Source of the DNA: a virus
Taxonomy: Duplodnaviria > Caudoviricetes
DNA: 48,221 bases
Virus record (IMG/VR): IMGVR_UViG_3300031519_007785
Coordinates: 1 to 48,221 of that record
Reading direction: 5' to 3' (one strand)
Part shown: positions 1 to 19,788 of the stretch, in pieces
How the letters are laid out: every line of letters begins with the position of its first letter
Position numbering within the stretch: position 1 is the stretch's first letter
The notes under the pieces: model-generated
The model's database searches: none
The model's input: the letters and a program-made list of their open reading frames with translations, nothing else
What the model was told of the DNA's origin: nothing
Translations under genes and position numbers: made by a program

Positions 1-580
1 TTATTCCTCCGCAGTGTTTTGATATGCATCTCTTCTTGCCTTTCAATTTATTTTCAATTCGTTTGGCTTCTTTGACATCGATGCCTAGTGAATCGTATGT
101 GAACCTGCGGGGTAGGTTACCCTTGACACCCAATCGTTTGGCCGCCTCACGCCTTGCTGATTTATCTTTATAGAGCACGTAATTAGATATCCTAGCACTG
201 CGTCCGGGCCACTTCTTGAATATCCTCTGCATGACCTCGTTCTGTTTGTGATGGGGGAAGTCTATGTCCACATCAGGAAGGTCGTCCCTGTAAGGGTTGA
301 GGAATCTTGCCACGGGTATGTCCCACTCCACTGGGTCCACATCTGTTATGCCCAGCAGGTAACAGACCAATGATGAACCAGCACTACCACGTGTCATGTG
401 CGGTATGTCTCGTGTCATTGCGATGATGTCACATATTTGTATGAAGTAGTCTACGAAACGTAGTTGAAGGATAATTTGAGTTTCCTCGGCTAGCCTGTGC
501 GTGTATTCTTCTGTGCCTGGACATTGCCTAATGAATCTATCGTATAGCCTTGTTATGTCGTTTAGTTCTTTGTTTTTCAT
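1..580 (-). CDS. dnaE: DNA polymerase III alpha (DnaE)-family polymerase lacking the N-terminal PHP domain; 5' part only, runs off the left window edge (not in the ORF track)
   Basis: Manual translation from ATG at 580: MKNKELNDITRLYDRF...YTHRLAEE...RFVDYF...TRGSAGSSLVCYLLGITDVDP...ARFLNPYRDDLPDVDIDFP...SKHCGGI. The RGS, YxLGIT, PDxDxDF and HxGG motifs are DnaE palm signatures. An in-frame TAA lies six codons upstream of the ATG. Confidence 0.9.
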   Translation of the reverse strand, partial: MKNKELNDITRLYDRFIRQCPGTEEYTHRLAEETQIILQLRFVDYFIQICDIIAMTRDIPHMTRGSAGSSLVCYLLGITDVDPVEWDIPVARFLNPYRDDLPDVDIDFPHHKQNEVMQRIFKKWPGRSARISNYVLYKDKSARREAAKRLGVKGNLPRRFTYDSLGIDVKEAKRIENKLKGKKRCISKHCGGI

Positions 581-654: not shown

Positions 655-1329
655 TTATACTTTTTGGCGCAATTTACTTTTAGGGACCGTGATGTCTCTG
701 TGGTCACAGGCGGAACTGATAACACATTCCTCACACAACGGTGTTCGTGATTTACAAAACAGTTTGGCATGTGTGATCAGCCACATGTGGGCACCGTACT
801 TGTATTTGCCAGGTGTGGTATTGTTAACTGTGATCGACGCCTTACCCTCATCCAAACTATCTGCCCAACCCAATCTCCACAACATTCTGAACACGTGTGT
901 GTCTACTGCTATGTGAGGTTCACCGAACACGAATCTCATCACAATGTCGGAGCTCTTTCTGCCAACACCAGGCAAGGTCATTAGTTCCTTCTGTGTTTGG
1001 GGTACACGCCCGCTGAACTCTTGTAACAACATCTTACTGGTTGCTAGAATATTTTTTGACTTTGCATTGAACAGGCCCGCGGGTTTGATTGCTTCTATAA
1101 TTTCTTCCTGTGAAAGTTTAAGCATGTCCTCGGGTGTACTGGCCAATGAGAACAACTGCCTACATGCTATCGCTGTCCTCTTATCTTGAGATTGTGCGGA
1201 CAACATAACACCTATAAGACTAGTGTATGCTTTTGAATAAATTTTTGCTTTGGGTTTTTTATTTGTGTATTCAGGATAAAGAGAACTTAACTTCTCATAT
1301 ATGTAATCGATGTCATTACTGTTCTTCAT
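655..1329 (-). CDS. nth: Endonuclease III (HhH-GPD DNA glycosylase/AP lyase with 4Fe-4S cluster)
   Basis: LSAQSQD, HhH motif LPGVGRKS (catalytic Lys), AVDTHV (catalytic Asp) and the C-X6-C-X2-C-X5-C cluster CKSRTPLCEECVISSAC. Confidence 0.93.
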   Translation of the reverse strand: MKNSNDIDYIYEKLSSLYPEYTNKKPKAKIYSKAYTSLIGVMLSAQSQDKRTAIACRQLFSLASTPEDMLKLSQEEIIEAIKPAGLFNAKSKNILATSKMLLQEFSGRVPQTQKELMTLPGVGRKSSDIVMRFVFGEPHIAVDTHVFRMLWRLGWADSLDEGKASITVNNTTPGKYKYGAHMWLITHAKLFCKSRTPLCEECVISSACDHRDITVPKSKLRQKV

Positions 1330-2794
1330 CTGAGTGCAGTTCGTTTAGAAGTTGTCTCAGTTTGCCGCCTTCCACATTGGCTTTTACTTTACCTACTGTA
1401 TCTCCCTTACGTGGATCAGGCACTTCTGGTCTAGCATCACCTGGCGTGCCACCTCCCGCTGAAACTTTTGAAGTTTGTTTCAGTGAATCATATATTGTGC
1501 TTCGTTGTTTATCAAACTGTTTGTATTCTGGATCATCAGCCAAGTCTCTGATCCTCAGACTGTCAACGTCAAATTCCAAGTCTACTTTCTGCCCAACACC
1601 AGAACTTGATCTGGTCTTCATGAACTGTATCTGGTACCTTCCACGCTCCTTCATTGCCCTCGATGTGAATATACCTATCACGTTGTCAGCTGTCTGTATC
1701 TTGGACAGTCCACCTGATATGTGAGAGTGATCGAACTCTATCTCTTCAACACTCGCCCTGTTCAACTGTGATGCAGTTGCCAACACACAATGTTTCTCAA
1801 CAACCAAGTTCCTCAGTTCCTCAGATACGTACTTGTCTTTGATGAACAAGTCTGCTGGCGATATTCTTTTACTCTTTGGCATCATGAGATCCAAGTAGTC
1901 GATCAGTATGCAATCTATTTTTACTTTGTTTTTAAGTTCTAGTTCTTTGAGATATGTTCTTATATCTAATACGTTACTACCACTTGGCAAGTATTTGATC
2001 TGTAAGTTACCTGATTTCTTCTTCAACATTTTAACCTTCATCTCGACATTATCTATCTCCGGGAATACTTTTCTTGTTGGAATGTTAGTCATCATGGCAT
2101 CTAGTCTCATGGCAGTTAGAGCCTCGGACAATTCAAAAGAGATATAGCAAACGTTCAATCCGGCCAGTGACCAATTGACTGCAAGATTCTGCAAGAACAA
2201 ACTCTTACCTGCTCCCGATCCTCCTGCAAAGATGTTTAGTTCACCTCTGTTGAAACCACCAAACAGTTTCTTGTCTAGATTTTCCCAACCAGTGCTGATC
2301 TGTCCGTTGTTGTCCTTGAGTGCTTCAAGTCTTCCCTTGGGATCCTCAAAGTAGTCTGTACCTAAATCCCTTGTTAGTCCTACACTGACTGCTTCCTTGA
2401 CCATGTCCTCAACTGGACCGTAGTCCCCTTTCTCTAAAAGATCAGCAGATGAAAGAATTGCTTGTTCCAGTGCTTTGTGTCTAGAGAACGTTTCGAACTC
2501 GTCTAGCAACCAGTTGAAGTGTGCAGGATCTAGATCCTTTGCTGTTTTTAATTTTATATCGTGTTGTGCATTAACTATATCAACCTCCGGCATCACTTTG
2601 TACTCGTCCATGTAATCTTTGACGAACTTTGCTATGGGTTGTAATTTACGATCGAACGATCCAGGATTGAATATGTTCTGTGCCCTAGCAAATGATTCAG
2701 CATCTGCCAACAACATTTCTATATACAATTTCTGTACATCGAAAGAATAATCCTTAGCCTGGTGTTGTGGTTCGTTGTTATTGTAATCAGCCAT
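1316..2794 (-). CDS. gp41: Replicative DnaB-family helicase (T4 gp41-like)
   Basis: ISTGW..LD...GG, Walker A GGSGAGKS, ISFELSE, Walker B ILIDYLDLM, ASQLNR, KTRSS; directly downstream of primase. Confidence 0.92.
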   Translation of the reverse strand: MADYNNNEPQHQAKDYSFDVQKLYIEMLLADAESFARAQNIFNPGSFDRKLQPIAKFVKDYMDEYKVMPEVDIVNAQHDIKLKTAKDLDPAHFNWLLDEFETFSRHKALEQAILSSADLLEKGDYGPVEDMVKEAVSVGLTRDLGTDYFEDPKGRLEALKDNNGQISTGWENLDKKLFGGFNRGELNIFAGGSGAGKSLFLQNLAVNWSLAGLNVCYISFELSEALTAMRLDAMMTNIPTRKVFPEIDNVEMKVKMLKKKSGNLQIKYLPSGSNVLDIRTYLKELELKNKVKIDCILIDYLDLMMPKSKRISPADLFIKDKYVSEELRNLVVEKHCVLATASQLNRASVEEIEFDHSHISGGLSKIQTADNVIGIFTSRAMKERGRYQIQFMKTRSSSGVGQKVDLEFDVDSLRIRDLADDPEYKQFDKQRSTIYDSLKQTSKVSAGGGTPGDARPEVPDPRKGDTVGKVKANVEGGKLRQLLNELHSDEEQ

Positions 2795-3800
2795 ACATCT
2801 TTCTCTTCAAATCTATCTTAAGTTTACTTCGCTCTGTTGTCTTTAATATTGATTGTATAGTAAACAGTCTACCGTATTTTAACACAGCATCGGCTACATC
2901 GTCAACTCCATCTTCCCATTCTGGAAATGCAACACTCCAGCCAAATTCCATTGCTTGATTGATCAGTTTTTCTCCTGGAGCGTCTCTGTCCGGCACTACT
3001 ATAACTTGCCTGCCTAGACCGTCTATTAGCTCTCGCTGTGTATCATTTATCTCCGATCCAAGTATACTAACTCCAGAAACGGTAATTGCATCAAATGGTC
3101 CTTCTGTTACTAATACAAACTTTCTTGTCCAGTCTTGTGCATCCATGTTAAACACATACCCGGGCTGTACGTCTGTGTAGTATTTGACTTTGGTAGATTC
3201 TTCAAACATCCTTCCTGAGAAACCAACTATATCACCTCGCCAGTAAAACGGTATTAGTAATCTTTTATCTACGTCCCAACTTTTGTTTGGGGAATACATG
3301 AAGTCGTACCAGTCAGCGCCAATGCCACGTCCTTCTAAATATTTTAGTAAATTATCAACAGACTTTGTTTCATCATCTGATAATAAATTTTCTAACATCT
3401 TCTCTAACCAAACTTCTAGTTTTTTTGCACCGCTAGGTAATTCTCTTTTATTGAATGTCACAAACTTCTTCTTCTCATACTTTACATCACCTTCTTCTTC
3501 ACGCATGGCTTCTATGGCAAGTTTTCTTATAGTATCGTCTGGTATGCCTATGTACCCCATGAACTGTCTCATTTTGAATGTAAGTTTTCTACCAATAACA
3601 TACGATGCCTTGAAGCCACAGTTGAAACAGTGATAGCTCACGGTCCCATCGGCGCTGATCATTATGCCACCACGCTTCTTCTTGTCCGCTGACTCTCCGT
3701 TGTAGATACAACAGGGTGCGTTGAAACTTATCCAACCGCTTGGGGTTTTCTTTCTACCCGCAGGCAGACTAGTCAGAATTGTATTCTGTATCAAATTCAT
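2787..3800 (-). CDS. gp61: DNA primase (T4 gp61-like; zinc-binding domain plus TOPRIM)
   Basis: N-terminal zinc ligands (APCC...YHCFNCG), GR...KY, TOPRIM motifs VTEGPFDA and PDRDAPG, DDVAD. Confidence 0.88.
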   Translation of the reverse strand: MNLIQNTILTSLPAGRKKTPSGWISFNAPCCIYNGESADKKKRGGIMISADGTVSYHCFNCGFKASYVIGRKLTFKMRQFMGYIGIPDDTIRKLAIEAMREEEGDVKYEKKKFVTFNKRELPSGAKKLEVWLEKMLENLLSDDETKSVDNLLKYLEGRGIGADWYDFMYSPNKSWDVDKRLLIPFYWRGDIVGFSGRMFEESTKVKYYTDVQPGYVFNMDAQDWTRKFVLVTEGPFDAITVSGVSILGSEINDTQRELIDGLGRQVIVVPDRDAPGEKLINQAMEFGWSVAFPEWEDGVDDVADAVLKYGRLFTIQSILKTTERSKLKIDLKRKMYG

Positions 3801-4643: not shown

Positions 4644-5018
4644 ATGAATGAAATTTTTAACACACTAAGGGACAAGTTCCCATTCTTGAGCCTGATCAGA
4701 AAGGGCGATTTGGAGTATGTGGGCATAGTGCAGAACGAAGATGTAAACGTAATTAGTTTTTATGACTATGGCAGGCTTATGATGCCACAGGATAAGATGA
4801 AGTTTCTTAAATGTGGCGAAACTTGGTGGCACGAATCTAATAGAAAATTACCAATAAACATATTCCTTAAAGGTGAATTTCGTTACTTTAGAACAACTTT
4901 GGTTACGCTCAACGCAAAAGATATAGAGATAGTGCATGGTCCAACTGTGAGATTATCTGATATATCTAAAAAACGTGTAAAGAGAAGAACTATACAATTA
5001 GTTAGACGTCCTACTTAA
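4644..5018 (+). CDS. Hypothetical protein (124 aa, basic C-terminus)
   Basis: Fills the gap between minus-strand genes, has normal protein composition and no competing ORF. Confidence 0.7.
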   Translation: MNEIFNTLRDKFPFLSLIRKGDLEYVGIVQNEDVNVISFYDYGRLMMPQDKMKFLKCGETWWHESNRKLPINIFLKGEFRYFRTTLVTLNAKDIEIVHGPTVRLSDISKKRVKRRTIQLVRRPT

Positions 5019-5158
5019 TCTTCAGACTTTTCAATATACTTCTTATAATATATAGTCAATGGATTGTCCGCTTGATAATGACACTCATGCGAAGGCATCT
5101 TGTATGTTTTCTTTTTACGTTTTTTGGAAAGTTTTTTCTTAAGTTTCTGATGGTGCAT
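5015..5158 (-). CDS. Small basic protein, 47 aa (below the ORF-track cutoff)
   Basis: MHHQKLKKKLSKKRKKKTYKMPSHECHYQADNPLTIYYKKYIEKSED*; preceded by TAAATA (5167-5172) 8 nt before the ATG; fills an otherwise empty gap. Confidence 0.5.
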   Translation of the reverse strand: MHHQKLKKKLSKKRKKKTYKMPSHECHYQADNPLTIYYKKYIEKSED

Positions 5159-5729
5159 CAAAACTATATTTAGCACTACTAATCAAATTCATCTGTACTA
5201 CTATAGCCTGTGCATATGCCACAGCATGTGACTTCTTGAAGAAGTATGATCCGTCTGTGGGTTTAGTCCATACATCTTTTGTTATATCTGTCCAGTCCTT
5301 GTACATCAGCTGTCTCTTGGCAGGACGTATGATAGCTAACACAGCCGCAAGTTGTTCTATAGTTCTAGGGTTCAGTTTGGATACTATATTAAAATGTCCG
5401 TTTAGGTGGAATAGATTTTCTACCGTCTTGGGATCCTTTAACATGTCCCAATCAGGCTCCTGTATCATTAGTTCAACAAGTTCCTGTTCTGATTTTACAG
5501 CCTTGTATATGTTTACGTTCAAGCAATCAATTTTGAAGTATCCTCTGTCCTCTGCTTCTTTGTAATCCAATGATGCATGTCCTGTGACTGGGTGTTCTGG
5601 TACAGCATGGAAGTACACTCCTGTCTTGTGTTTTTCAAACTTGCCTGCCTTGCTCATTGATGCAGGTGTGTGCTTGAATAGTTTAAGTGTGTTGTCTCTG
5701 TCAAAAAAATCTATGTCTACATCTGGCAT
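5139..5729 (-). CDS. Miniature DnaE (Pol III alpha)-like catalytic core, 196 aa
   Basis: Starts at MPDVDIDF, followed by KHKTGV, GYFKIDCL (third catalytic Asp), LFHL, LAIIRP and YFFKKSHAVAY, in DnaE palm/finger order. Confidence 0.85.
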   Translation of the reverse strand: MPDVDIDFFDRDNTLKLFKHTPASMSKAGKFEKHKTGVYFHAVPEHPVTGHASLDYKEAEDRGYFKIDCLNVNIYKAVKSEQELVELMIQEPDWDMLKDPKTVENLFHLNGHFNIVSKLNPRTIEQLAAVLAIIRPAKRQLMYKDWTDITKDVWTKPTDGSYFFKKSHAVAYAQAIVVQMNLISSAKYSFDAPSET

Positions 5730-5962
5730 TAGTGTACACTTCCTTTATCTGTTTCATTATGTTTGATAAAATTTTCTCTTGAACCTGGGTGTAAAACTTC
5801 CACTACTTCTAGCAACGCTTTATAACCTTCACTGTTCAACATTTCTGCATTCAACTTAGGCACAATAACTTTACCAATTGATCCGTCTTTCTTTATTGTC
5901 ACTGCACAATCTCCTTCTTCAAACTCTAAATTTTCTGCTATCTCTAAATTTATTTTAGACAA
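5729..5962 (-). CDS. Hypothetical protein (77 aa)
   Basis: Translationally coupled on both sides (TAATG overlap with the mini-DnaE start). Confidence 0.65.
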   Translation of the reverse strand: MSKINLEIAENLEFEEGDCAVTIKKDGSIGKVIVPKLNAEMLNSEGYKALLEVVEVLHPGSRENFIKHNETDKGSVH

Positions 5963-6638
5963 TCTTTGCCTCCCTTGCTGTGTCCTGTACTAGCATGTGG
6001 TCGGCTGGGTAGCTCTTCAACTTGCTTGGCCAGAAACTTGTATTAATAAATTTTTCTATCATTTGTAATTGTTCGTCGTTAAATGATTTTAGCATCCTTT
6101 TTCCTGCACTGCAACCTAACAGCAACCATGGACTTATCTTTCCCTGCTGTATATGTTGTACTGCTCGATTGGTATTAATCAGTCTGAAGTAATCAGGCCA
6201 TTGTGCATTCTGTTCTGTCGCCCAGTCCATCATCGTAGCTATGCTCCTTTGTAGTGCGGCTTCCACTGGTTCTGATTTTAGTGCTTCGATAAGATACATT
6301 TCGTATAGATCATCTCTAGCCCAATGATCAAGTTTCACCTTTGACTGTAACACATAATCTATATACTTGTCCGGGTACAATGGATTGATATGCATGATGA
6401 ATCTACCAAATTTTACAAATGCATTGTAGTAAGAACTCCCACAAAAGTCTTCATATGTTTTAGTTTTTGAAGTATGTTGATGTATCTGATAAAATCTCTG
6501 GAACACCATGAATGCATTCACTACCCATTTCTCATCTCTTTGTAGGTATCTTCTTTTAGGTTCGCACAGATGTACTTGTAGTGTACGTTCTTTTGCAAAC
6601 TCCTTGCCACAGTACGTGCATTTATTTGTCGATGCCAT
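5955..6638 (-). CDS. Hypothetical protein with N-terminal C2HC/C2H2-like zinc finger
   Basis: CTYCGKEFAKERTLQVHLC; lies in the replication operon and overlaps both neighbours. Confidence 0.7.
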   Translation of the reverse strand: MASTNKCTYCGKEFAKERTLQVHLCEPKRRYLQRDEKWVVNAFMVFQRFYQIHQHTSKTKTYEDFCGSSYYNAFVKFGRFIMHINPLYPDKYIDYVLQSKVKLDHWARDDLYEMYLIEALKSEPVEAALQRSIATMMDWATEQNAQWPDYFRLINTNRAVQHIQQGKISPWLLLGCSAGKRMLKSFNDEQLQMIEKFINTSFWPSKLKSYPADHMLVQDTAREAKIV

Positions 6639-7074
6639 GTGCCTCTATCAGTTCCTCTAGTTCTCTATCTGTTATTATCTTGTCTAGTGTTTCTAGATCT
6701 GCTTCTTTCCACGTGGGATATATCTGTTGTAATTTCTTAAGGCTCTTGTTAGGCACACGTTTCATTGGTTTGACCCATGGATGGAACTGTTGTTGTAACG
6801 ACCCACACATAGCGGTCAGTATCCAAAGTAATTTCTTGTGTTTGCCTAGTGTGAAGCAGTGTTTGTTGACACACTCATTCACCATCTCCACGTAATGTTC
6901 TACAAAGAATTGATCCTTTGAAGATGTGCTGGAAACATATCTCATCAGCATGTAGGGTGAGTACAAAGATTTCTCCTTGTCGTCTATCCTGTCGTAGTAG
7001 TCTTTGTTTCTGAAGTCAACGGCTTTCAACCCGTTTCTCAAATCAAAAAATTTTCTATTTTTTTCTGCTGGCAT
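6622..7074 (-). CDS. gp62: Probable clamp-loader small subunit (T4 gp62-like)
   Basis: YSPYMLMRYVSS...EMVN...KHKKLLW...FHPWVK resembles the gp62 pattern YxPxMxxRxxS...N...WxK; size and context fit. Confidence 0.55.
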   Translation of the reverse strand: MPAEKNRKFFDLRNGLKAVDFRNKDYYDRIDDKEKSLYSPYMLMRYVSSTSSKDQFFVEHYVEMVNECVNKHCFTLGKHKKLLWILTAMCGSLQQQFHPWVKPMKRVPNKSLKKLQQIYPTWKEADLETLDKIITDRELEELIEAHGIDK

Positions 7075-7288
7075 ATTTTAGTGCAAACATTGTGCATTCT
7101 TTTGCTGTTACAAATGTTAATTTTATTTTATTGTGTTTGTGTTGTAAACCTGAAAATTGGAATTTGTGTTTCTTGATGAAATCAAAAAAATCATGCATCC
7201 AACCTTCGTCCATCCACACAGCAATCTTGTCACTGGTTATCATGATTGGTGCGTCCAGTGTAATTGATTTCCTACCAGACGGAGCCAT
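7055..7288 (-). CDS. Hypothetical protein (~77 aa; start revised to ATG 7288)
   Basis: MAPSGRKSITLDAP...ECTMFALKYASRKK; the revised start gives only short overlaps with neighbours. Confidence 0.6.
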   Translation of the reverse strand: MAPSGRKSITLDAPIMITSDKIAVWMDEGWMHDFFDFIKKHKFQFSGLQHKHNKIKLTFVTAKECTMFALKYASRKK

Positions 7289-7775
7289 AGTCCACCTGTT
7301 CACACTGCCTTGATATGTCCTTGACAAAGTAGGCACACATGGGTTTTGGTCCATTGTTTAAAGGTACGGCCAACATCTGTCCTGACTTGATCTTTGGGAA
7401 ATACCATTTTACTTCTGTATAGATATCTACAACGTCAATTGGATAGAAATCTGGTTTTGGGCTGGACAATGGATTGAATGTGAATGCATCAAATCCCCTA
7501 TCGTTGAGGCTAGTTATTGGTAACACGTGCATCTCAGATTGTCCTGCTTCTCCTATCAACATCTTCCAATCTAACGGCATCTTAATTTTGTGATTTCCAA
7601 TTTCTAAGACAGCCGCCGGAGCATTGAAGCTCTCTAGGAATATCAACGGTATGTAGAAGAAATCTGGATTGGCGGGATCTGCATTATCGAGGACTGCAAA
7701 TCTCAGATCCTCATCTACCCATTCTGGGATCTTCTCTATGCTGTACGCACGGTCATCAAGTGTAAGGATTTTCAT
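7272..7775 (-). CDS. Hypothetical protein, possibly a degenerate stand-alone Hint (intein-like) fold
   Basis: 167 aa, predicted all-beta pattern; LEIGNHKIKMPLDWKML..LPITSLNDRG and IDVVDIYTEVKWYFPKI echo Hint blocks B and F. The CDS is confident, the fold is tentative. Confidence 0.6.
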   Translation of the reverse strand: MKILTLDDRAYSIEKIPEWVDEDLRFAVLDNADPANPDFFYIPLIFLESFNAPAAVLEIGNHKIKMPLDWKMLIGEAGQSEMHVLPITSLNDRGFDAFTFNPLSSPKPDFYPIDVVDIYTEVKWYFPKIKSGQMLAVPLNNGPKPMCAYFVKDISRQCEQVDYGSVW

Positions 7776-9219
7776 AATTTATCTTTTCTATATTATACGG
7801 GTAATTGGCCTCTTTGTAAAACTTTTTCCTTGCCCCCAGGTGTCTTTTTGCAAACTTGCAAGAACTGGTAATATCCCATATCTGTACATTATCTTTGTCT
7901 TCGGCTTTCCTGATGCCACGTCCTATGCTCTGTATTACACGAACAAACGACTTGCCAGGCTCTATGAGAACAAGATTGAAAATACGAGGAATGTTAATAC
8001 CAACACTGGCAACTCCATATGTGGCAATAATAATTTTATTTGTTGCAGTAGATACTTCATCATATTGTTCCTTTCTGTCTATGTTTTTTGTTGATCCAGA
8101 TACAAAAACTGAATCTTTTAGATGTTCCTGTAATATTTGTCCTGCTGATATTCGGTCAACGAGTACTAGTGTATTGCCTGATGACGAAACGTCTTTTATG
8201 GTATTCGCCACCCATTTCATTCTGACTTTGTCTGTCGTAAGCCATTTTAATTCTTCTGCATATGTTTTGAACTGTGGGTGATCCTGTGTTTGTAAAACAT
8301 TTACATGACAGTTTGCTAGTACACCTTTATCTTGCAGTTCGCTGGCTTGTATCCTATGGGACACATCGCCTATGCTACATTTTAATCCCATGAATTCATA
8401 ATCTGCTTTTGGCACAGTACCTGTTAGTCCCCAACGTATACCACAGTGTGCGAATGGTCCAGTCAGCAATCTTTTAAGAACATCAGCTTTTGCCATATGC
8501 ACCTCATCTATTATTACTGTGTTGATTCCTTTTATTGCTTCTGCAAATGCTTCCGAGTGTTCGTCTTTACTTTTCTTTTCTAACACGTTCAGTGACTGCC
8601 ATGTTGCTATTGTGTTAAACCTACCTAGCTCTTTTCTATCTCCGTAGTATACTCCTACATCGAGATTACAAGCAATAAAATCTTCTTCTGTTTGTGTCAC
8701 AAGACTCTTGTTCGGAACAATAGTTAGTGTTCTTCCATATGGCTCGACTAGTTGGCATAGTGCCGCTGTGATGATTGTCTTTCCTGCACCTGTGGCAATC
8801 TCTTGAATACTCTGAGGATGTTCTATAAATTTGTTTATTGTTTCAACTTGATAATCTCTTAACTCAATAGACTGTCCTGCCATTGGATGTGTGTCGGGCC
8901 ATTTTATGTGTGATAGATAATCTTTGTCTACTGCTTGGAATTCAAAGTTGTGTTGTTCTCTTTGATCAACAACATCTATGTATACACCACCCTCATCTAG
9001 TATGGGCAGTATTTGATCCACGAGATTTAAGTAAGTTGTGCCACCTAACCCAAAGAATGAAACTTTACCATCCCATCTGCCTAGTTTCACTGCTGGAAGA
9101 TGTCTAGCATATGGTATCTCATATTTGAATTTATTGGATAGCCTCTTCCTCCATTCCAGGGAAAGATTCTCAAACTTCACGTTCACTTCGTCTTTTATTA
9201 CTAATTTACAACTGCTCAT
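7756..9219 (-). CDS. uvsW: UvsW-like superfamily 2 DNA helicase
   Basis: WDGKV, Q motif LRDYQ, Walker A ATGAGKT, DEVH, GLTGT, GINIP, QSIGRGIR. Confidence 0.92.
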   Translation of the reverse strand: MSSCKLVIKDEVNVKFENLSLEWRKRLSNKFKYEIPYARHLPAVKLGRWDGKVSFFGLGGTTYLNLVDQILPILDEGGVYIDVVDQREQHNFEFQAVDKDYLSHIKWPDTHPMAGQSIELRDYQVETINKFIEHPQSIQEIATGAGKTIITAALCQLVEPYGRTLTIVPNKSLVTQTEEDFIACNLDVGVYYGDRKELGRFNTIATWQSLNVLEKKSKDEHSEAFAEAIKGINTVIIDEVHMAKADVLKRLLTGPFAHCGIRWGLTGTVPKADYEFMGLKCSIGDVSHRIQASELQDKGVLANCHVNVLQTQDHPQFKTYAEELKWLTTDKVRMKWVANTIKDVSSSGNTLVLVDRISAGQILQEHLKDSVFVSGSTKNIDRKEQYDEVSTATNKIIIATYGVASVGINIPRIFNLVLIEPGKSFVRVIQSIGRGIRKAEDKDNVQIWDITSSCKFAKRHLGARKKFYKEANYPYNIEKINYENPYT

Positions 9220-10628: not shown

Positions 10629-11111
10629 ATGAAAAAAACTAGTAAAAAGACTGTCACAGTCAGGAAACAATTAAAAATTAAATTAGAAAATACTCTGACT
10701 AGACAAAAGAATGTTAGGAACTTCAAACCCACACACTCATTAATGGTAACTTGGTTCAAACAGTTGAACAAGGGATTATTTGGTAGTAAATTACCCGTAG
10801 TGCCGTTGTATCTAGTAAGGATGACAGGTGACTGGGGTAGATGTTGGGCCAATTGGGATAACAGGAAATGTAGGAAAGGAACATGCGATCAAAGTGTAAT
10901 TCCTTATGGTAAGACAGAAATTGACTTTGCTATTGAACTGCATACCACTTATCCAACGTTTAGAGATTTTATAGAAACATTGGCACACGAAATGGTACAC
11001 TTGTATCAGATGACGATCATACAAGATCCATACTCAAATCACAATGCTAACTTTTTTGCCTTCAGGAACAAGTTTAAAAGTGCTGGACTGTTTCTATCAA
11101 GAACCGGCTAA
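10629..11111 (+). CDS. SprT-like zinc metalloprotease
   Basis: F..LN..LF...LP, WGRC, TLAHEMVHLYQ (HExxH) and a downstream NHNANF third His; ATG at 10629. Confidence 0.8.
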   Translation: MKKTSKKTVTVRKQLKIKLENTLTRQKNVRNFKPTHSLMVTWFKQLNKGLFGSKLPVVPLYLVRMTGDWGRCWANWDNRKCRKGTCDQSVIPYGKTEIDFAIELHTTYPTFRDFIETLAHEMVHLYQMTIIQDPYSNHNANFFAFRNKFKSAGLFLSRTG

Positions 11112-11852
11112 TACAGTCTCTTCAAACTCTTTGTAACTTATAACCTTGCTGTTACCCAGGTCGGTTCCTGTCTGTAAGTGATTGAAGTAATCAGGTGGAT
11201 TATCATGCACCACTGTATAATTGACATAAGGTCTCATCTTCAACATGTCACGGAACTGTTTCAACCACCCATCAAAAATTGTATCAGCATGTCTTTCGCC
11301 GTAGCATTCTGTCTCTTGATAGATGTTGTTCAACTGATCTTTACCGTACTCTCTGAAGTCATACCCTATGAGATATATGTTCTTGTGGCCATGCACTCCT
11401 GCTGTCCAGAACGCTTGGTTGCCTGAGATCCAGTGTGGGTTGTTTGGAATAAGATGTATCATGCCTTTTGCATGTCTCCTGTTTACTTCCAGAGATGGAG
11501 CATAGTGTATGGTCTGACGTCCCACTTTGTCTAAACACATCTGTGCAGTCATTTTAGCATCAACACTGAAAATAAAGTCAGGCCAAAAATCTCTATACAA
11601 GGCATTACAACCGTATGTTTGGCCTGTTGCTTTCAACCTGTTAAGGTCAAGACCCTTACGTGAAGGTCCGTTACCTATGCAGTATGCATTTCCTCTCGGC
11701 ACTGCTTTAACTTTGTCTTCAAAAAATTCTTTTTCGTATACACGTTTACTATTACGAATAATTGTGTTTACAATTATTTCCTCTCCATCATACGGTTTCC
11801 ACTCTATTGGTTCTATTATATTTCTTTTGTTGACGTTGAATGTTTCTACCAT
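11097..11852 (-). CDS. DUF115/Maf-like (sialyltransferase-fold) glycosyltransferase-like protein
   Basis: CIGNGPSR, YGCNALYRD..PD....VD, ISG..A, IYLIGYD; the start at 11852 gives TAATG coupling. Confidence 0.7.
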   Translation of the reverse strand: MVETFNVNKRNIIEPIEWKPYDGEEIIVNTIIRNSKRVYEKEFFEDKVKAVPRGNAYCIGNGPSRKGLDLNRLKATGQTYGCNALYRDFWPDFIFSVDAKMTAQMCLDKVGRQTIHYAPSLEVNRRHAKGMIHLIPNNPHWISGNQAFWTAGVHGHKNIYLIGYDFREYGKDQLNNIYQETECYGERHADTIFDGWLKQFRDMLKMRPYVNYTVVHDNPPDYFNHLQTGTDLGNSKVISYKEFEETVLAGS

Positions 11853-12724
11853 TATAGATATTTTTCCTCTAGTCTTTTCTTTATTCTTCTCCATGGCAGA
11901 CCTTGTTCTATTTCTTCAGTCCACCATTCTGTGTATGACAGTTTGTTGGCCCACTTTTGTCTATGGGGCATATTGGGATTGTTGATGTTGTCAAATGATG
12001 TATTGCCAACCTCGTAACTTAGACTTGCCTCTGACACATACACTGGTATTCCATGCATGGCCGCAGTGATGGCAGGATTGCTGGAATAACTTACAAGTGC
12101 CCATGCCGACTTCAATCGTTCCGTAAGGTCTGTGTCGTCGTATGTGCTGGAATCTCTTTTAGGACCTACTATTTTTACGTTCTTATATTTTGTAGTATCT
12201 ATACTAACATGATTCCTTGGATGCGGTCTGATAACAATGGGTCTGTCTGTGTATTTTCTGATTTCATTTATCTGTTGGTCAAACCAGTTTGCCATGGGTG
12301 GATTGTTCCTCCACTGATGACTGCTTCCGTGTTGTCCACAAATTATAATGTTTTCGCCTGTCTGGTTCCATGGTTTTATATCAACGTTGAATTTTTTCCA
12401 ACGTTCTGCATCTACGATTTCATTGGCAAAATCAGCTTCTCTGTTGATTCCGTTTATTCCTATTTTCCATGTCTCATTTCTTTTTATGCCGCCGACTTCG
12501 ATGACAACGACAGGCTTGTTTTTTTTTCTGTATCGTTCCCAAATGTCCTTGTATTTCCGCATGCGACCTTGCCACAGTACACTCCAAATTACTGCCACAT
12601 CTGCATCGGGTACTTGCTTGTTTACGTACACTTCTTCTCCGGATGCACGTAAGGATTTAATAAATTTATCGAATACATCTTTTGAATTCAAAGGACCATG
12701 TTGCGGCCATATCTCTATTTTCAT
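11852..12724 (-). CDS. KpsC/KpsS-like (capsule synthesis) GT-B glycosyltransferase, paralog 1
   Basis: IEVGG, CGQ, IVIRPHP, SYSSNPAITAAMHGIPVYV, R..W...LSY..W...E...G. Confidence 0.7.
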   Translation of the reverse strand: MKIEIWPQHGPLNSKDVFDKFIKSLRASGEEVYVNKQVPDADVAVIWSVLWQGRMRKYKDIWERYRKKNKPVVVIEVGGIKRNETWKIGINGINREADFANEIVDAERWKKFNVDIKPWNQTGENIIICGQHGSSHQWRNNPPMANWFDQQINEIRKYTDRPIVIRPHPRNHVSIDTTKYKNVKIVGPKRDSSTYDDTDLTERLKSAWALVSYSSNPAITAAMHGIPVYVSEASLSYEVGNTSFDNINNPNMPHRQKWANKLSYTEWWTEEIEQGLPWRRIKKRLEEKYL

Positions 12725-13644
12725 TAGTTGCCTTGCTTTCCTTTTGCAACTTTACTCACTATGTCTTCTGCTTGTTTGGGATCAAACTTCACACCACCGA
12801 ACGGGTCATAGTTTTCCACGTTCTTCCAATATTCTTCATTTCGATTGCCACGCAGGTCGCTCTTACTACTTTTCCCTAGCACTTTCCTTTTACCCTTCAT
12901 GTGATCTACATAAGCACCCAGCACACTGTTTATGAAAATATGATGTCCTTTTGCTCCTGCGCCCTTACCTATGTCTACGCCATCGTTGGGTGCTATCCTT
13001 TTCACACATTGCCAGAACACATAGCTGTCGTGCCATTCTAGTTCTTTGAATATTGTGTCATTGACATAAAGGTCAGTCCAGTACTTCATGAAGTCGGTTA
13101 CCTTTGGGTGCCTCTTGTTGTAGCACACCCACCCACACTCCGGATACTTTTCTCCCCTGCCCAGGAAGTTCACAAGTTTATCCTTTGGCAACAGGCCTGT
13201 CACGAAGTCTGTGGTGATTTTTCTGAATGTGTATGTGTCAGCGTCCAGCCATAGTATGTAGTCTGCGTCTATGTTTTTAATTGCATGATCCACCGCAAAT
13301 GTTTTGTGAGAGAATCTCACTGCGTCCCACAAGTAAGAGCCCTTGCCTTTGTCGCTTTTGCCTGCGGTTGGATCTCTCCTCACACCACCTCGTATTTCTG
13401 TGACTTCACCGTTGGCGACAGGATCGTCTTTGTGTCGGTCCTTGAACTTTACAAGTTCTGTGTTTGCTTCTTCTATATTGATAAATTTAACTTTGCTGTG
13501 TTCAAAATCTGGTTTAGGCCCTTCATGATAGGCATAGAGAACTACATCATCGGGCCAAAATTTAACATGGCTCTCGATCATCCTCTTTGCGTATGTGGTC
13601 CACCTGTTTGGTGGGAATGTTGTTACGACTGCTAGACTGCTCAT
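12724..13644 (-). CDS. GT-A fold glycosyltransferase
   Basis: RFSHK..A, ILWLDADT (DxD), ECG, WHDSYVF, DHMKG. Confidence 0.75.
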   Translation of the reverse strand: MSSLAVVTTFPPNRWTTYAKRMIESHVKFWPDDVVLYAYHEGPKPDFEHSKVKFINIEEANTELVKFKDRHKDDPVANGEVTEIRGGVRRDPTAGKSDKGKGSYLWDAVRFSHKTFAVDHAIKNIDADYILWLDADTYTFRKITTDFVTGLLPKDKLVNFLGRGEKYPECGWVCYNKRHPKVTDFMKYWTDLYVNDTIFKELEWHDSYVFWQCVKRIAPNDGVDIGKGAGAKGHHIFINSVLGAYVDHMKGKRKVLGKSSKSDLRGNRNEEYWKNVENYDPFGGVKFDPKQAEDIVSKVAKGKQGN

Positions 13645-13646
13645 GA

Positions 13647-15380
13647 CTAATATTTAATCTTGTACATTTCCTTCCAACTTTTATATGCCCAGCTCGGTAC
13701 TAGACTTTTACCAATTTTTGCATTGAGTGTGACTGAATCAATTTGGTTGTCATCTCCCATTGCGGTCTCATAAAAATTATTTAGATCTTGATCCACTTTT
13801 GATTTCAACCAATGTCCGATCGGTACAGTCCACCCTGTCTTACTTTTATTTGTTATTTTATTTGGGAGTAATTTTTTATATGCTTTCTTGCTAAGGAGTT
13901 TTGTGTCTCGTTCTGCTCCTCCTATTTTGTACTTGGTGGGTATGTTTAAACAGTACTGCATGAAAAATTTTGATGCCAATGGAAATCTTCCTTCCATTCC
14001 GTATGCCATGCCGTACTTGTCATTCCTGCTGAAAAATTCTACTGGTACCTGTGTTACACAGTCCAATGCCATGTATGAAGCGGTAGGATCATTTTTATTC
14101 CATAATTCGTCTGAATAGCATTGTCCAAATTCTTTTAGTAATATATCATCGGGTAAAATATTTTTAGTCAATCTTCTAGGCCTTTTTATCCGATTCATCC
14201 AATGTCTTAACACATGTATCCATTTTTTCATTTTCACCCTTCCATGTAAGATGTGTTGGTACTTGGTATATCCACCGAGTATCTCATCTCCCATGTCTCC
14301 CGCCATCGTTACAATAATTCCGTTGTGGGCTAAAACTTTATTTGTGTGCAAGTACATGGCAGAGTTTGGAGTGTACACTGGTTGTTCGCCAAAGTACACA
14401 GAGTCATTCCACGATTCCATGAATATTTTTGGTGTAATTTCAACTTCTGCATGACAGAAGTCCTCCTGTTCTGCAAGGACCTTGGCCGCCACAGCGTCAC
14501 TGTTGAAGTCTTCTGTGTCTACGTCTAGCTCCGGAGCAGGACTAAATTTGTTTGTAAAGGTAAACACCTGGTCCTGGATCTTGCCCAGCTCGTAAGCAAC
14601 CACACTGGAATCTAGACCACCACTCAAAAACACTCCAATTTTCCTTTGTCCTATCGAGCAACGTTTTACTGCCTGGCCTAGTTGTTCTCGGAATTCATTA
14701 GGATTGAACTTTGTGTTGCTGTTTGGTTTGATGTATATTCTTTTTGTGTCTATAATTTTTTTATTTTTTACGTCCCACACTATTGTTTCTCCTGGCAGTA
14801 ATTTTTTTATGCCACTGAACAATGTATTTCTCAAAGGATTCAATCCTGCTCTACTTTGGAAACTTGCGGCCAGGTGATCTAGTTTCCTTGAACCAGGCAC
14901 TTTGTCCAACATGCCCTTCAATTCTGATCCGAACACAAGACCTTGATCTATTTGTGCATAGTATAGCGGTTTAATTCCTGCATGATCTCTGCTCAGGGTA
15001 ATTCTGTCTTTGTCTATTTCATAATAAGCAAACCCGTGCATTGAATCTATTTCATCTATGAATTTAAGACCAAATCTGTCCAATCCCCATGCAAGTAATT
15101 CTGTATCACACCCTGTGGTGTCTGTGAAGTCTTTGTATTTTTGTTTCAACTCGTAGTAATTGAATATTTCACCATTGTAAACCAACCTGTTTCCGTTAGG
15201 TGTTTTCCACGGCTGTTTAGATTTCTCCGGGTCAGCCATTATACTCAAAAGATTATGTCCTAGCGTGACACTGTCGCATGACCATGTACTGCTTCCGTCA
15301 GGCCCTCTGTGGGAACAGATATGCATGTATTCATTAATGAAATTCTCGTCATGGGCGGTTATACCGTATATGCCACACAT
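13647..15380 (-). CDS. asnB: Asparagine synthase (glutamine-hydrolysing)-family amidotransferase
   Basis: N-terminal MCGI (Ntn Cys), HRGPD, YNGEIFN, RDHAGIKPLYY, LSGGLDSS, GDE, EGRFP, K.G...P. Confidence 0.92.
   Translation of the reverse strand: MCGIYGITAHDENFINEYMHICSHRGPDGSSTWSCDSVTLGHNLLSIMADPEKSKQPWKTPNGNRLVYNGEIFNYYELKQKYKDFTDTTGCDTELLAWGLDRFGLKFIDEIDSMHGFAYYEIDKDRITLSRDHAGIKPLYYAQIDQGLVFGSELKGMLDKVPGSRKLDHLAASFQSRAGLNPLRNTLFSGIKKLLPGETIVWDVKNKKIIDTKRIYIKPNSNTKFNPNEFREQLGQAVKRCSIGQRKIGVFLSGGLDSSVVAYELGKIQDQVFTFTNKFSPAPELDVDTEDFNSDAVAAKVLAEQEDFCHAEVEITPKIFMESWNDSVYFGEQPVYTPNSAMYLHTNKVLAHNGIIVTMAGDMGDEILGGYTKYQHILHGRVKMKKWIHVLRHWMNRIKRPRRLTKNILPDDILLKEFGQCYSDELWNKNDPTASYMALDCVTQVPVEFFSRNDKYGMAYGMEGRFPLASKFFMQYCLNIPTKYKIGGAERDTKLLSKKAYKKLLPNKITNKSKTGWTVPIGHWLKSKVDQDLNNFYETAMGDDNQIDSVTLNAKIGKSLVPSWAYKSWKEMYKIKY
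13651..13656 (-). promoter_or_regulatory. TAAATA late-type promoter, 6 nt before the ATG at 13644
   Basis: Minus strand TTAAATA-ttagtc-ATG; no SD. Confidence 0.6.
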
Positions 15381-16363
15381 TACAGACCCAGTTTTGATTT
15401 GAACCTTTTGTAAACAGTGCTGTCTTTTATTTCTTTGATGCTCCAGAGTTTGTACCCAAGATCATGAACCCACTGAGTCCTGTCCGGGGTCTTTGGTGTC
15501 TCTATGTCGTTGAGATCTTTGTTGCAGACGTCCCAACACAGTGCTAGATCTGATGTGCAGAAAGTTGGTATTCCCCTTATGCAACTGTCCACACTGGCTG
15601 TGGAGTTATGTGTTACTACGGCGTGTGCGTTTGTGATTGCTTCCTGGAAATGGAACCTGTAGTATTTTTTCTCGTCACCTTTGAAATGTTTTTGAGTGTA
15701 TTGAATTTCAACATCATCGGGCAGTTCATTCTCACGTTCTAGTGTGTTGGATACATTATTAGGATGAGGACGTACAATAAATTTTCTATCTGTTGCAGGC
15801 CTTAGTTTTTCATAGACTCCGTTGAACCAATCTATAGGATCTAGTTCATTCATGCTCCAGTTGTCCTTTGGTTGCATGACGAATATGATTGGATCATCCT
15901 GATTGGATTTCCTCCATGGCTCATATTTCACATTGAATTTTTTGACCAACATGTCCCAACGATCTCCTGGACTGTTATCAGACAGGAAGTCGCCGTCGTT
16001 CATGGGTGTGTATAATGATACCCTAAAATGATGATCGGGAGAAGTTGACACATTGCCAAAACTACTTAATAAGCCTCCGTCAAATGTTATCAAAGGAATT
16101 TTCTTTGCTCTACAGTTGTCGGCCAGTTCCCTACGTCTGCCTTTTGTGTGGTGCATCTGCTTGTCTCCGCCATATCCAAACATTGCGGCCATGGGTGCAG
16201 TTGGGGTCATTTCACCTTCTACCGTTGGACCAGATCTGTTTTCGTTTACAATTATGGCTTCATCGCCCGCGGACTCTATCCCTTTTTTAAGATGGTAAAG
16301 AAGTTCATAACTGTTCCCACGTTTACGATCCTTTACCGTCCTACGGAATATTTCAACTTTCAT
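15380..16363 (-). CDS. KpsC/KpsS-like GT-B glycosyltransferase, paralog 2
   Basis: MQPKDNWS, FIVRPHP, VTHNSTASVDSCIRGIPTF, R.QW...LGY..W; ATG at 16363. Confidence 0.7.
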   Translation of the reverse strand: MKVEIFRRTVKDRKRGNSYELLYHLKKGIESAGDEAIIVNENRSGPTVEGEMTPTAPMAAMFGYGGDKQMHHTKGRRRELADNCRAKKIPLITFDGGLLSSFGNVSTSPDHHFRVSLYTPMNDGDFLSDNSPGDRWDMLVKKFNVKYEPWRKSNQDDPIIFVMQPKDNWSMNELDPIDWFNGVYEKLRPATDRKFIVRPHPNNVSNTLERENELPDDVEIQYTQKHFKGDEKKYYRFHFQEAITNAHAVVTHNSTASVDSCIRGIPTFCTSDLALCWDVCNKDLNDIETPKTPDRTQWVHDLGYKLWSIKEIKDSTVYKRFKSKLGL

Positions 16364-17141
16364 CAACGTCCTTCCTGATGAAGATCAGTTCCATCATTTT
16401 TTTATCTCTTTTCCTGTTTATGTAGATATTATACTGTGTTTGGTGCAAATTGTAAAGCTCTCTGACTTTATCAAATGCCTGCTCTATGGACGTGCCGACT
16501 GTTAATTCTATCTCGGTCACCCAAAATTTAACATCTAGGTTAGCAATTTCTTTACCAACTTCATACCACAGCCCTTCAACATCTGTTTTGAGTATGTCCA
16601 CACTGTCCCACTCAAACTCCTTCATTATTGTGGTTATATTTTTGCACTCCACGTCAACAGTTGGTAAATTGTTACCTAGGTTGACCAAGGAGTAACTGGC
16701 CGGCACTGGTAACTTATTCCAATTATCTTTGTGCCCTTCTGGTGGGTAAAAAGTGAAAGTTCCGTTTTTTGGTCCATAGGCTACAGGATAGAATTTAAGA
16801 CAGTTATCAATTATCCTTTGGCTTATTTTGGGACCTTTCCTAATACTTTCAAAATAATGTTTTCCACCACTACGTAGGATTCTTTTTATATAGAATTTCG
16901 TGGCAGGTGTTGGATCAAACATACGTACGTCAAGTCCTCGATTGTCTACGCATATCAGTTTCTCAAAATGGGCATCTGCCCCTATTCCAAAGCTCAACAC
17001 TCTTTTAGAATTCATGACATGGTATTCAGGCACGTGATAATTGCGATAAAGTTTGAAATTATGGGTTTTAAAAAGTTCTTCTTCGAATTTTCTAATTTGT
17101 CCTATTACTTCTGCGTCCTCCGGGTTGATACTATCAGCCAT
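16353..17141 (-). CDS. FkbM-like SAM-dependent methyltransferase
   Basis: VLSFGIGADAHFE, MFDPTP, VDILKTDVEG. Confidence 0.7.
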   Translation of the reverse strand: MADSINPEDAEVIGQIRKFEEELFKTHNFKLYRNYHVPEYHVMNSKRVLSFGIGADAHFEKLICVDNRGLDVRMFDPTPATKFYIKRILRSGGKHYFESIRKGPKISQRIIDNCLKFYPVAYGPKNGTFTFYPPEGHKDNWNKLPVPASYSLVNLGNNLPTVDVECKNITTIMKEFEWDSVDILKTDVEGLWYEVGKEIANLDVKFWVTEIELTVGTSIEQAFDKVRELYNLHQTQYNIYINRKRDKKMMELIFIRKDVDES

Positions 17142-17940
17142 TCAACATACTCCATGCTGTTCCGTCGGTCATTTCTTTCAGACTATAGTTGTTGTAGGCA
17201 AGGCTTGAAAACAGTGCAACTCTATCGCCGTACTGTGGGGTTTCAATCTTTGTGAAATCTGTTTCTGATATTGGGGCCGCCGCACTGTTATTGGGATCAC
17301 AGAATACAGGTACACCATTTGCCAGGCTGGCCACCATGGTGTTGGAGTTGTAGGTCACTGTTGCGTGATACTCGTGCCAGTCGATGTTGCCCTTGTGTAC
17401 TGTGGGCTTGTCCACTTTCACAGTGGCGCCAACATGATCAACGGCAATTGTTGGATTGTACGGTTTCTCTCTTATGTCTATTTGTCTGTCTGTGTTTTGT
17501 TTCAGTGTGTTGATTGTGTTGTCCAACCAATCTTTTGCATCAAAGAAGTTTGCTATTGCATTTGTTGGAGGCAACACTAGGATTTTTTTTCCTTTGTTCC
17601 ATGGTTTGATGTCTTGTTTGAAATGCTTCTCATATCTATCTGTTGGCCTTTTTTGTAATATGTTTTGACAGTGTTTGTTCTTGGTTATACGTAACCAGTG
17701 TGGACTGTCATGTGCATTTGTGAAATATCCATGATCCATAAAATAGAAATCTCTGTACTCCTTCTCACACCATTTGTACACCTCACCGGAACCCGCTAGT
17801 ATACCGTACATGGTCAAATTCTCTTCAGGTAATAATTTTAAATCTCTGAATTGATATACCTTACCCTTTCCAGACCCATTGACGAAAGCATCTACATAAC
17901 GCTGTGTCCTCGGTTTGGTTGTGTGTATTCCTGCTATCAT
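17134..17940 (-). CDS. KpsC/KpsS-like GT-B glycosyltransferase, paralog 3
   Basis: MDHGYF, ILVLPP, IREKP, VTYNSNTMVASLANGVPVF, R......LAY. Confidence 0.68.
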   Translation of the reverse strand: MIAGIHTTKPRTQRYVDAFVNGSGKGKVYQFRDLKLLPEENLTMYGILAGSGEVYKWCEKEYRDFYFMDHGYFTNAHDSPHWLRITKNKHCQNILQKRPTDRYEKHFKQDIKPWNKGKKILVLPPTNAIANFFDAKDWLDNTINTLKQNTDRQIDIREKPYNPTIAVDHVGATVKVDKPTVHKGNIDWHEYHATVTYNSNTMVASLANGVPVFCDPNNSAAAPISETDFTKIETPQYGDRVALFSSLAYNNYSLKEMTDGTAWSMLNG

Positions 17941-18680
17941 TTTTCGTTTACGGTGAACATGTGACTTCTACTTGCTCTACTGTATTCTGCTATTATGTTT
18001 ACACTGCGTCTATGCACACTTGCATTTGTTCTCGGAGTGACACCGTGTATTGCTTTGGTTGAGTTGTTTAGGAACATCACGAACGTGTTTGCTTTGTACG
18101 GAACTGTTTTAACAACACCGCCCAGGTTGTGTTCAAAAATTTGTCTTCCTTTCTTCATGTCCACATCCTGAACATTATCAATAGAATCATAGATCTGGAA
18201 TTCACCGCCTGTGCTTGTGTCTTCCTTGTGTGGCATGTACAATAGACCCGCATATATTTCTCTTGGGTTGTCTATGTGTGGCGACCTCGTTGTTGTCGTC
18301 ACAGGCTTGTGCATGACAGTCTGACAGTCTGTCCAAATGTGTGCAGACTTCTCTACCCAGCCCCTGGGACCTAGAGATGGATTATCATACTTGATATATT
18401 CTGAGAACACAGTCTTCACTTCGTTGTAGAAGTCCATCGACGTGTGATATTCTGTAAATTCCTTCCATAATTTGGAAACTTTTTCTGGTTTCAGCATCTC
18501 ATCTGCCTTAAGCCTATAACAGACTCCGTCGTCAAAAGGTTCTGTGTCAAGCAGTTGTTGTCTTGGCCATTCCTTCTCAAGTTGTTCGTATACGTTTGTT
18601 GGCAAAGCATTTTCTATCACTATATGAGGATAAGGCTCTTTGACTAGCAAAGGGTTGTTTTGTAGGACCGATAATGTCAT
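17937..18680 (-). CDS. 2OG-Fe(II) dioxygenase
   Basis: EPYPHIVIENALP, HxD (PHIDN), GGEF, N..VMF, distal His HGVTPR, RRS.N. Confidence 0.8.
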   Translation of the reverse strand: MTLSVLQNNPLLVKEPYPHIVIENALPTNVYEQLEKEWPRQQLLDTEPFDDGVCYRLKADEMLKPEKVSKLWKEFTEYHTSMDFYNEVKTVFSEYIKYDNPSLGPRGWVEKSAHIWTDCQTVMHKPVTTTTRSPHIDNPREIYAGLLYMPHKEDTSTGGEFQIYDSIDNVQDVDMKKGRQIFEHNLGGVVKTVPYKANTFVMFLNNSTKAIHGVTPRTNASVHRRSVNIIAEYSRASRSHMFTVNEK

Positions 18681-19765
18681 TCTAGGTGCTCCATTATTTC
18701 GGGTATATTAATTTTAAAATTTATCATGTCACTGAATCTTTTTACTCCTTCTAGCTTGGCTCCTTTTTCTCTAGGAATAGGAACAACATCGGCCAAGTAC
18801 AACCTATGTTCAAGATTCAAGTTATGTGACAGCAATGGATAAACTTTCTTGTGTATCATATTCTTGTCTTGTATTTCTATAACTTTAGTTCCGGGTTGAC
18901 ACCACAACAAGTTTGTTAGGCCTGCACCGTGTGCCGCCACGATGTGTGATGCTTCTGCAAACGTTTTCATTTGTTCTTTTATAGTCATGTTCTCCAATGC
19001 AACAGTCTCCCATCCTTTAAGTTTTAATAGGAGTTCATCTGAATTCAGAAGTTTTCTGGTCTTTGCACCGGGTCTTAGTACAACTATCTTCCTATGAGGC
19101 TTTACGCCTTTGAGGTCCTTCAAACCTTTGAAATGTCGTAGCCACGGAGCCAACGGCGGGACTATTACACCATCCCTCACATTACTCATGCTGGGTACTA
19201 TAAGGTGTTTGAATTGCCATGTTTCTCCCTTGGGCATCACTATAATTTTTATATCTGGAAAAAGTTCCTGACATACCTTTTCGAAATAAGGACTGTAATT
19301 TGCCAGCACGAAACAATATCTGGAGAAGTTAGTTGACCATCTTTTCTCAATCAATCTTAACTTGGATATTAAATCTATCCAGATGTGCCACGGATTACCT
19401 TTACTAGAGTCATCAACTGGTAGCCAGACATAGGTGTCAGTCTCATTGAAAGATTCTGTAACTGGCGGAAGTTTTAAATCCACAGTGTCGTCCCATTCGG
19501 TCCAGAGGTTGTGACTTTTATTTGGCTTATGTCTGCTCTTGTGTGTCAGTTTCCATACATGGTCTGTGATAAGTTTGTTTTCACTAGTCAGCAACAACGG
19601 GCAAGTGTGAACTTTACAATCATAGAACTCTGCCACAAATGTTGGTAAACTGGTAAACTTTGGATCAATACTGTCATGATAAGGTACAGTATAGTTGTAT
19701 TCTGGATCCACTGTTTCCCAACGGTCGAGGAAATACTTTATAGAGCTTATATTTTTGACTGACAT
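18677..19765 (-). CDS. Glycosyltransferase family 61 (DUF563)-like; start revised to ATG 19765
   Basis: NPWHIWID, R...R.LLN..E, LE.MT..EQ...F..A..IVAAHGAGLTNLLW...G..VIEI. Confidence 0.82.
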   Translation of the reverse strand: MSVKNISSIKYFLDRWETVDPEYNYTVPYHDSIDPKFTSLPTFVAEFYDCKVHTCPLLLTSENKLITDHVWKLTHKSRHKPNKSHNLWTEWDDTVDLKLPPVTESFNETDTYVWLPVDDSSKGNPWHIWIDLISKLRLIEKRWSTNFSRYCFVLANYSPYFEKVCQELFPDIKIIVMPKGETWQFKHLIVPSMSNVRDGVIVPPLAPWLRHFKGLKDLKGVKPHRKIVVLRPGAKTRKLLNSDELLLKLKGWETVALENMTIKEQMKTFAEASHIVAAHGAGLTNLLWCQPGTKVIEIQDKNMIHKKVYPLLSHNLNLEHRLYLADVVPIPREKGAKLEGVKRFSDMINFKINIPEIMEHLE

Positions 19766-19779
19766 TTTATTAATAATTA

Positions 19780-19788
19780 TGTTATAAT
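19780..19788 (+). promoter_or_regulatory. Extended -10 promoter (TGtTATAAT), 8 nt before the ATG at 19797
   Basis: Lies in the 31-bp divergent gap; no SD. Confidence 0.55.

Follow-up and report, generated by a model that had tools for sequence, protein, structure and literature searches.

The split minimal DNA polymerase III alpha of group 2.2 jumbo phages, described from sequence by Iyer et al. 2021 (PMC7824862, section 13), is the closest known system to the gene examined here. Bacterial enzymes such as E. coli Pol III alpha and G. kaustophilus PolC are built around a one-chain PHP-Pol3-(HhH)2 core (as given in the accessible part of PMC3919608) that the 196-aa phage protein lacks; it shares with them the triad D401/D403/D555, K553, R639-P640, Y754/F756/H760 and the fold, at about one sixth of their length and with the RGS motif on a separate gene. 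The intein-split DnaE of cyanobacteria is likewise encoded as dnaE on two distant genes (same source), but the phage halves total only about 370 aa, are broken inside the palm and are not the cell's main replicase. A precedent for an intein-free two-gene polymerase in a jumbo phage is offered by the split family B polymerase of PhiKZ: according to the accessible portion of PMC13648687, its DNAP-N and DNAP-C join in a stable 1:1 complex that takes a third protein for processivity. The PhiKZ enzyme differs in its family B fold and in being a chimallivirus (group 1) replicase, and it is unrelated to the C-family enzyme.

Here, we analysed a window of 48,221 nucleotides, a linear virus record estimated to be 13% complete, whose features are collected in Table 1. 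We regard it as nearly certain that its 196-aa gene belongs to the split minimal Pol III alpha family of group 2.2 jumbo phages. It resembles the C-terminal unit described in section 13 of Iyer et al. in family, size, motifs and gene order, and its relatives have the distant N-half and the family B polymerase (PolB). It departs from the known members in coming from an uncultured, largely marine clade, 42-58% identical to the nearest complete genomes, and in that its own N-half is unseen. The original prediction had singled the gene out as a candidate for an uncharacterised system, a description that at the sequence level Iyer et al. had already overtaken; the accessible text of Yutin et al. 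2024 and of PMC11242549 holds no treatment of the split mini-DnaE family, and no measured activity or bench study of it was found in the literature. New here are five natural fusions of the two halves, the placing of the split at a seam of the palm and a residue map onto E. coli alpha. The fused forms and the change at R390 described below are not mentioned in the accessible text of Iyer et al. The family is conserved across a large and abundant group of phages that also encode PolB, and would show how small a part of DnaE suffices for catalysis.

Table 1. Features of the window (coordinates in the window; residue numbers of the 196-aa protein unless E. coli alpha is named)
Feature	Coordinates	Strand	Basis
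C-terminal unit of a split minimal Pol III alpha, 196 aa (phrog_11778)	5139..5729	-	profile match and structure
D3-x-D5-x-D7, of which D3 and D5 match D401 and D403, catalytic residues of E. coli alpha	5709..5723	-	alignment, conservation
Beta-hairpin predicted at 21-39, containing H34; probably what remains of the minor-groove thumb strands	5613..5669	-	model
K66-I-D68, equivalent to K553 (primer phosphate) and the third catalytic aspartate D555	5526..5534	-	alignment
R135-P136-x-K138; R135-P136 align to R639-P640 (templating-nucleotide contact), K138 family-specific	5316..5327	-	alignment
Nucleotide pocket helix Y162...H168...Y172 (Y754 stacking, F756, H760 steric gate)	5214..5246	-	alignment
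5' part of a PHP-less accessory DnaE of 563 aa that carries an RGS and a DxD of its own	2..580	-	match to L042
DnaB-like helicase (1316-2794) and primase (2787-3800), downstream; conserved replication context	1316..3800	-	domain match
124-aa convergent gene (phrog_11637)	4644..5018	+	profile match
77-aa upstream ORF; variable, without RGS; stop overlaps polymerase ATG	5729..5962	-	ORF reading
227-aa protein with N-terminal C2H2-like zinc finger (phrog_11058); candidate partner only	5955..6638	-	profile match
150-aa (phrog_11758), 99-aa and 167-aa (phrog_11279) ORFs of the same gene run	6622..7775	-	profile match
UvsW-like SF2 helicase, upstream in the run	7756..9219	-	profile match

Identity of the 196-aa gene

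The gene is an ATG-initiated open reading frame of 196 codons on the minus strand, and the plus-strand reading of the same interval is packed with stops; its start and the stop of the 77-aa ORF overlap by one base. Every motif previously reported for the protein is in place, namely MPDVDIDF at the start, KHKTGV at 33-38, GYFKIDCL at 63-70, LAIIRP at 131-136 and YFFKKSHAVAY at 162-172. The family profile phrog_11778 matches residues 3-187 at E 1.4e-65, and 5,018 of 5,044 candidate proteins (107-343 aa) match at E<=1e-3. A profile search returned 596 clusters at 50% identity, 154 of them at E<=1e-30. Matches were found in 96 GenBank phage records (95 covering at least 80% of the query), and Atu_ph07, Paride/PA5oct, XacN1, SCTP-2, PBECO4/121Q and GAP32 are among the matches listed, with protein identities of 54% to Atu_ph07 and 38% to GAP32. 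An identical protein is listed on a contig of 315,968 bases.

Active-site map onto E. coli alpha

The structure model of the protein is confident (pLDDT 89). In a wide structural search, the top seven of 48,161 solved chains were all PolC/DnaE polymerases, with Z from 10.0 down to 6.0 and an rmsd of 3.5-4.5 A across 192-195 aligned residues; unrelated rows followed at Z<=4.7. Foldseek returned nothing for the model at E<=0.001, its first 11 rows nonetheless being Pol III/PolC, and a single-sequence search of solved structures gave no match. Profile alignments to solved DnaE are weak but collinear, at E 0.0045-0.11 with a best E of 0.0045, and add the pairs Y162=Y754, F164=F756 and H168=H760 with E. 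coli alpha, while K165 stands at the position of N757. From its place in the motif, H34 is likely the equivalent of H511.

These assignments are accompanied by strong conservation. Among the 106 representatives of at least 170 aa within the 150 best, K66 is kept in 106, D68 in 105, D3, D5 and R135 in 102 each, H34 in 101 and H168 in 98. Five representatives without the triad look by eye like fragments or frameshifts, and in three full-length ones the steric-gate position of H168 is Q or S. According to the accessible part of a cryo-EM preprint on E. coli Pol III (bioRxiv 10.64898/2026.06.29.735100), the aligned residues bind metal, touch primer and template, stack on the base and exclude ribose, and the minor groove is gripped by two strands of the thumb that include H511; the available text of PMC8485763 names H760 as the steric gate.

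The model spans only residues 401-814 of E. coli alpha, with large deletions, and the PHP domain, helical thumb, most of the index finger, HhH, OB, tail and proofreading parts are absent. The claimed absence of PHP, RGS, HhH and OB from the protein is borne out. The original prediction had also described the thumb as largely deleted, which is right for the helical thumb and wrong for beta-hairpin 21-39 with its KH motif, retained in the model.

None of the triphosphate-binding arginines of DnaE/PolC (R390, R396, R709 and R710) is retained. R709 and R710 are deleted together with K714 and K715 along with the missing parts, R396 falls in the gap of the split, and the position of R390 is acidic in 49 of 49 sequences, a count partly built in by the search pattern; in an independent set, it is acidic in 28 of 30 by pattern and, by eye, in the remaining two. 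With R390 turned acidic and the other arginines lost, the enzyme may catalyse slowly or in an altered way, given that R390A alone costs E. coli alpha 27-fold (bioRxiv 10.64898/2026.06.29.735100, accessible part). The near-invariant family lysines K138 and K165 may replace these arginines.

The distant RGS half and its natural fusions

In each of Atu_ph07, Paride and GAP32, phrog_11127 finds a single gene of 170-180 aa that ends soon after GRGS and adjoins a GroES-like gene and a clamp loader, at a distance of 182 kb, 43 kb and 33 kb, respectively, from the C-half. Five further isolates chosen by their C-half have one N-half each (5/5). Conversely, IMG/VR records chosen by the N-half carry the C-half in 16 of 32 cases overall and in 11 of 11 of those at least 90% complete. 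A family B polymerase is encoded in 12/12 and 5/5 of the relatives' genomes. In profile alignment, the N-half corresponds to E. coli alpha 322-392, with its invariant R-G-S at R362-G363-S364, and since the C-half starts at 399-401, the two halves abut in E. coli alpha. They do so without spare sequence, and scans of Pfam, PHROGs and NCBIfam revealed no intein family. In the cryo-EM preprint, palm residues 271-393 stay static on DNA binding and the aspartate-bearing remainder is mobile, from which we infer that the phage split coincides with the seam between the rigid and mobile parts of the palm.

The N-half of this phage itself was sought at several scales. A six-frame scan of the window for [GT]RGS yielded only the gene at the window's left end and one stop-ridden frame; no neighbour carries RGS, including the upstream ORF for which this had been predicted. 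Among 42 close-relative contigs (all <=17% complete), the N-half was found in none, the six hits being the 563-aa DnaE, and it was likewise not found in five larger contigs, two of them C-half contigs 79% and 56% complete. A metagenome scan gave no contig above 44 kb among the best 80 listed. With the contig only 13% complete, we infer, rather than see, an RGS half of about 175 aa encoded elsewhere in the genome of this phage.

Further support for pairing, albeit indirect, comes from natural fusions. P0172 is a protein of 375 aa in which a profile search places the C-half at 189-371, preceded by the N-half (probability 99.8%), and it aligns unbroken across E. coli alpha 319-417. Five such proteins of 375-376 aa (P0172, P0286, P0287, P0301 and P0302) have the halves in DnaE order and fall into three 90% clusters; the two further fusion clusters are 81% and 78% identical. 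A single misassembly is unlikely because each of the five comes from a different contig, the longest 33 kb. A C-half tree of 36 rows groups the three fused rows together (100/99) and joins them to seven stand-alone halves (100/98). Monophyly of these seven stand-alone halves with four further stand-alone rows, without the fusions, was rejected (p-AU 3.6e-5), for a group named after an earlier tree had been seen and with midpoint rooting only. The fused forms likely represent secondary re-fusion. The proposal of a naturally split, intein-free minimal polymerase is supported by the distant RGS half of relatives and by the fusions.

No fusion was found in viral contigs. The true fusions came from the profile search; a search with the window protein did not recover them, and its sole result, P0121, was rejected as a longer form, being an apparent chimera. 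In the ESM Atlas, P0172 matches clusters of 355-378 aa labelled Bacillota (score 0.93-0.94), in which 58-88% of members carry DNA_pol3_alpha and in which finger domains also occur; these are possibly compact DnaE forms and possibly fragments.

Gene context and proposed mechanism

The polymerase half ends a gene run ordered as uvsW-like helicase, 167-, 99-, 150-, 227- and 77-aa ORFs; beyond it lie the convergent 124-aa gene, a 266-aa virion protein, the primase and the DnaB-like helicase. This gene order is common to all three isolates examined (Atu_ph07, Paride and GAP32). The 124-aa gene adjoins the polymerase half in 16/16 distant loci, 57/58 others and 3/3 isolates, and the 227-aa neighbour is conserved in 15 of 16 distant loci. 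Searches for solved relatives of these two proteins gave nothing beyond a zinc finger. Domain and family scans lent no support to the gp62-like label once given to the 150-aa neighbour. The 124-aa protein has many invariant W, R and K residues, and a C2H2-like zinc finger at the start of the 227-aa protein is unusual for a phage core gene.

The explanation that we consider probable is that the C-half pairs non-covalently with the RGS half of about 175 residues to give a low-processivity, template-directed DNA polymerase that assists PolB. In this scheme, the N-half would contribute the rigid palm base and the R-G-S triphosphate loop, and the C-half the metal ligands, the primer contacts (K66 and H34), the template contacts (R135-P136) and the base and sugar pocket (Y162 and H168). 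Binding of the halves would rebuild one active site able to read a primer-template and select dNTPs. In the absence of PHP, helical thumb, HhH, OB and proofreading, the enzyme would make short tracts only, because the parts that grip the duplex and the clamp are gone. Its most likely role would be to extend primase-made primers, or to fill gaps in recombination-dependent replication, and then to hand over to PolB, as gene context and the missing domains suggest.

A more specific version is tentative at best. It envisages a two-polymerase fork of jumbo phages, in which a C-family enzyme of about 370 residues, split at the palm seam and with two lysines in place of the arginines, would extend primers before PolB takes over. 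If true, no working C-family polymerase would be smaller, and the 375-aa fusions would already provide it as a single chain. The single-chain fusions and the residue map make the question of polymerase versus transferase testable with one small protein.

Alternative functions and the accessory DnaE

A repair function seems to us unlikely. Here, the two-half enzyme would be a damage-tolerant or error-prone polymerase for lesion bypass, or for mending gaps or double-strand breaks left by host nucleases. The missing proofreading domain, the loss of R390/R396/R709/R710, the UvsW-like helicase upstream and the naming of repair as one option in section 13 of Iyer et al. all fit this picture. However, the gene is present in a single copy in every complete group member tested, its fixed place among primase, helicase and (for the N-half) clamp-loader genes fits core replication, and the selection pocket of Y754/H760 is retained.

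We consider it quite unlikely that the pair is a repurposed nucleotidyltransferase active in de novo priming, terminal transfer, protein nucleotidylation or nucleotide signalling. Conserved equivalents of R639-P640, K553, H511, Y754 and H760 speak against it, as does the primase gene already beside the polymerase half, even though the catalytic fold is Pol-beta-like (PMC7824862, section 13), most duplex-gripping domains are absent and the triphosphate contacts are rewired. The stand-alone form of this idea, raised in the original prediction, is disfavoured because the half has no GS motif and retains the residues that contact template and primer.

Very unlikely, in our view, is a 196-aa protein that works without the RGS half, either alone or together with the 563-aa DnaE or with neighbours from its operon. 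It does have all three aspartates and a confident predicted fold on its own, the 227- and 124-aa neighbours are tightly linked and the phage's N-half is unseen; yet it has no R-G-S loop, R362A abolishes E. coli alpha activity (bioRxiv 10.64898/2026.06.29.735100, accessible part), and the N-half co-occurs with the C-half and is naturally fused to it. The 563-aa DnaE was also ruled out as the missing half, being an accessory insertion in a variable block with a self-contained triad and RGS; of 12 near-complete relatives, none has it at full length (two weak matches proved to be N-halves).

The second DnaE had been placed about 4.5 kb away, and the measured gap is 4,559 bp, with PDxDxDF found twice in a six-frame scan of the window. 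Its ORF is cut by the contig end and, across 193 aa, shares 99% identity with an uninterrupted gene of 563 aa (L042:16019-17710), which has palm and finger domains, no PHP, and its own RGS, DxD, KxD and RRxxxKK stretch. The gene occurs in 9 of 80 close loci and in 5 of the 22 loci that extend 1.5 kb or more past the helicase; its best GenBank match is a 484-kb uncultured phage (38.5% over 98%). The accessory DnaE would therefore be a third polymerase that some of these phages likely have besides PolB and the split mini-polymerase. Directly upstream of it, at 655-1329 (-), lies an Endonuclease III-like glycosylase with a 4Fe-4S motif, seen in 15 of 80 close loci, and the two may form a repair cassette.

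Conservation of the gene and further observations

The 196-aa gene is intact, and purifying selection on it is strong. In comparisons with 80 close relatives, pN has a median of 0.067 and pS of 0.65; dN/dS has a median of 0.045 and a maximum of 0.099 over 72 of the 80 pairs (seven saturated and one near-identical pair dropped), the pairs being mutually non-independent. To read the gene as the decayed remnant of a full-length dnaE, or as an artefact of assembly, is almost certainly wrong: an internal stop in 1 of 149 distinct homologous genes (L267) is set against thousands of homologs of the same length, this low dN/dS, internal deletions common to all relatives and the presence of the gene in cultured phages. 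The expectation that it is not decayed therefore held, with homologs likewise short and aspartates kept across the family.

The interrupted gene, L267:3001-3549, is a distant homolog with an in-frame TAA at codon 76, which is either a sequencing error or a rare broken copy. A nested gene was sought in 78 close and 71 distant homologs and is not conserved, all five other frames being stop-rich. One RNA run contained 5% of the words, and contigs carry no information on transcription. Elsewhere in the window, positions 11097-25497 hold a long block of ORFs that resemble, mostly by reading of their translations, glycosyltransferases, methyltransferases and an epimerase, and that include an asparagine-synthase-like amidotransferase recognised by a Pfam match.
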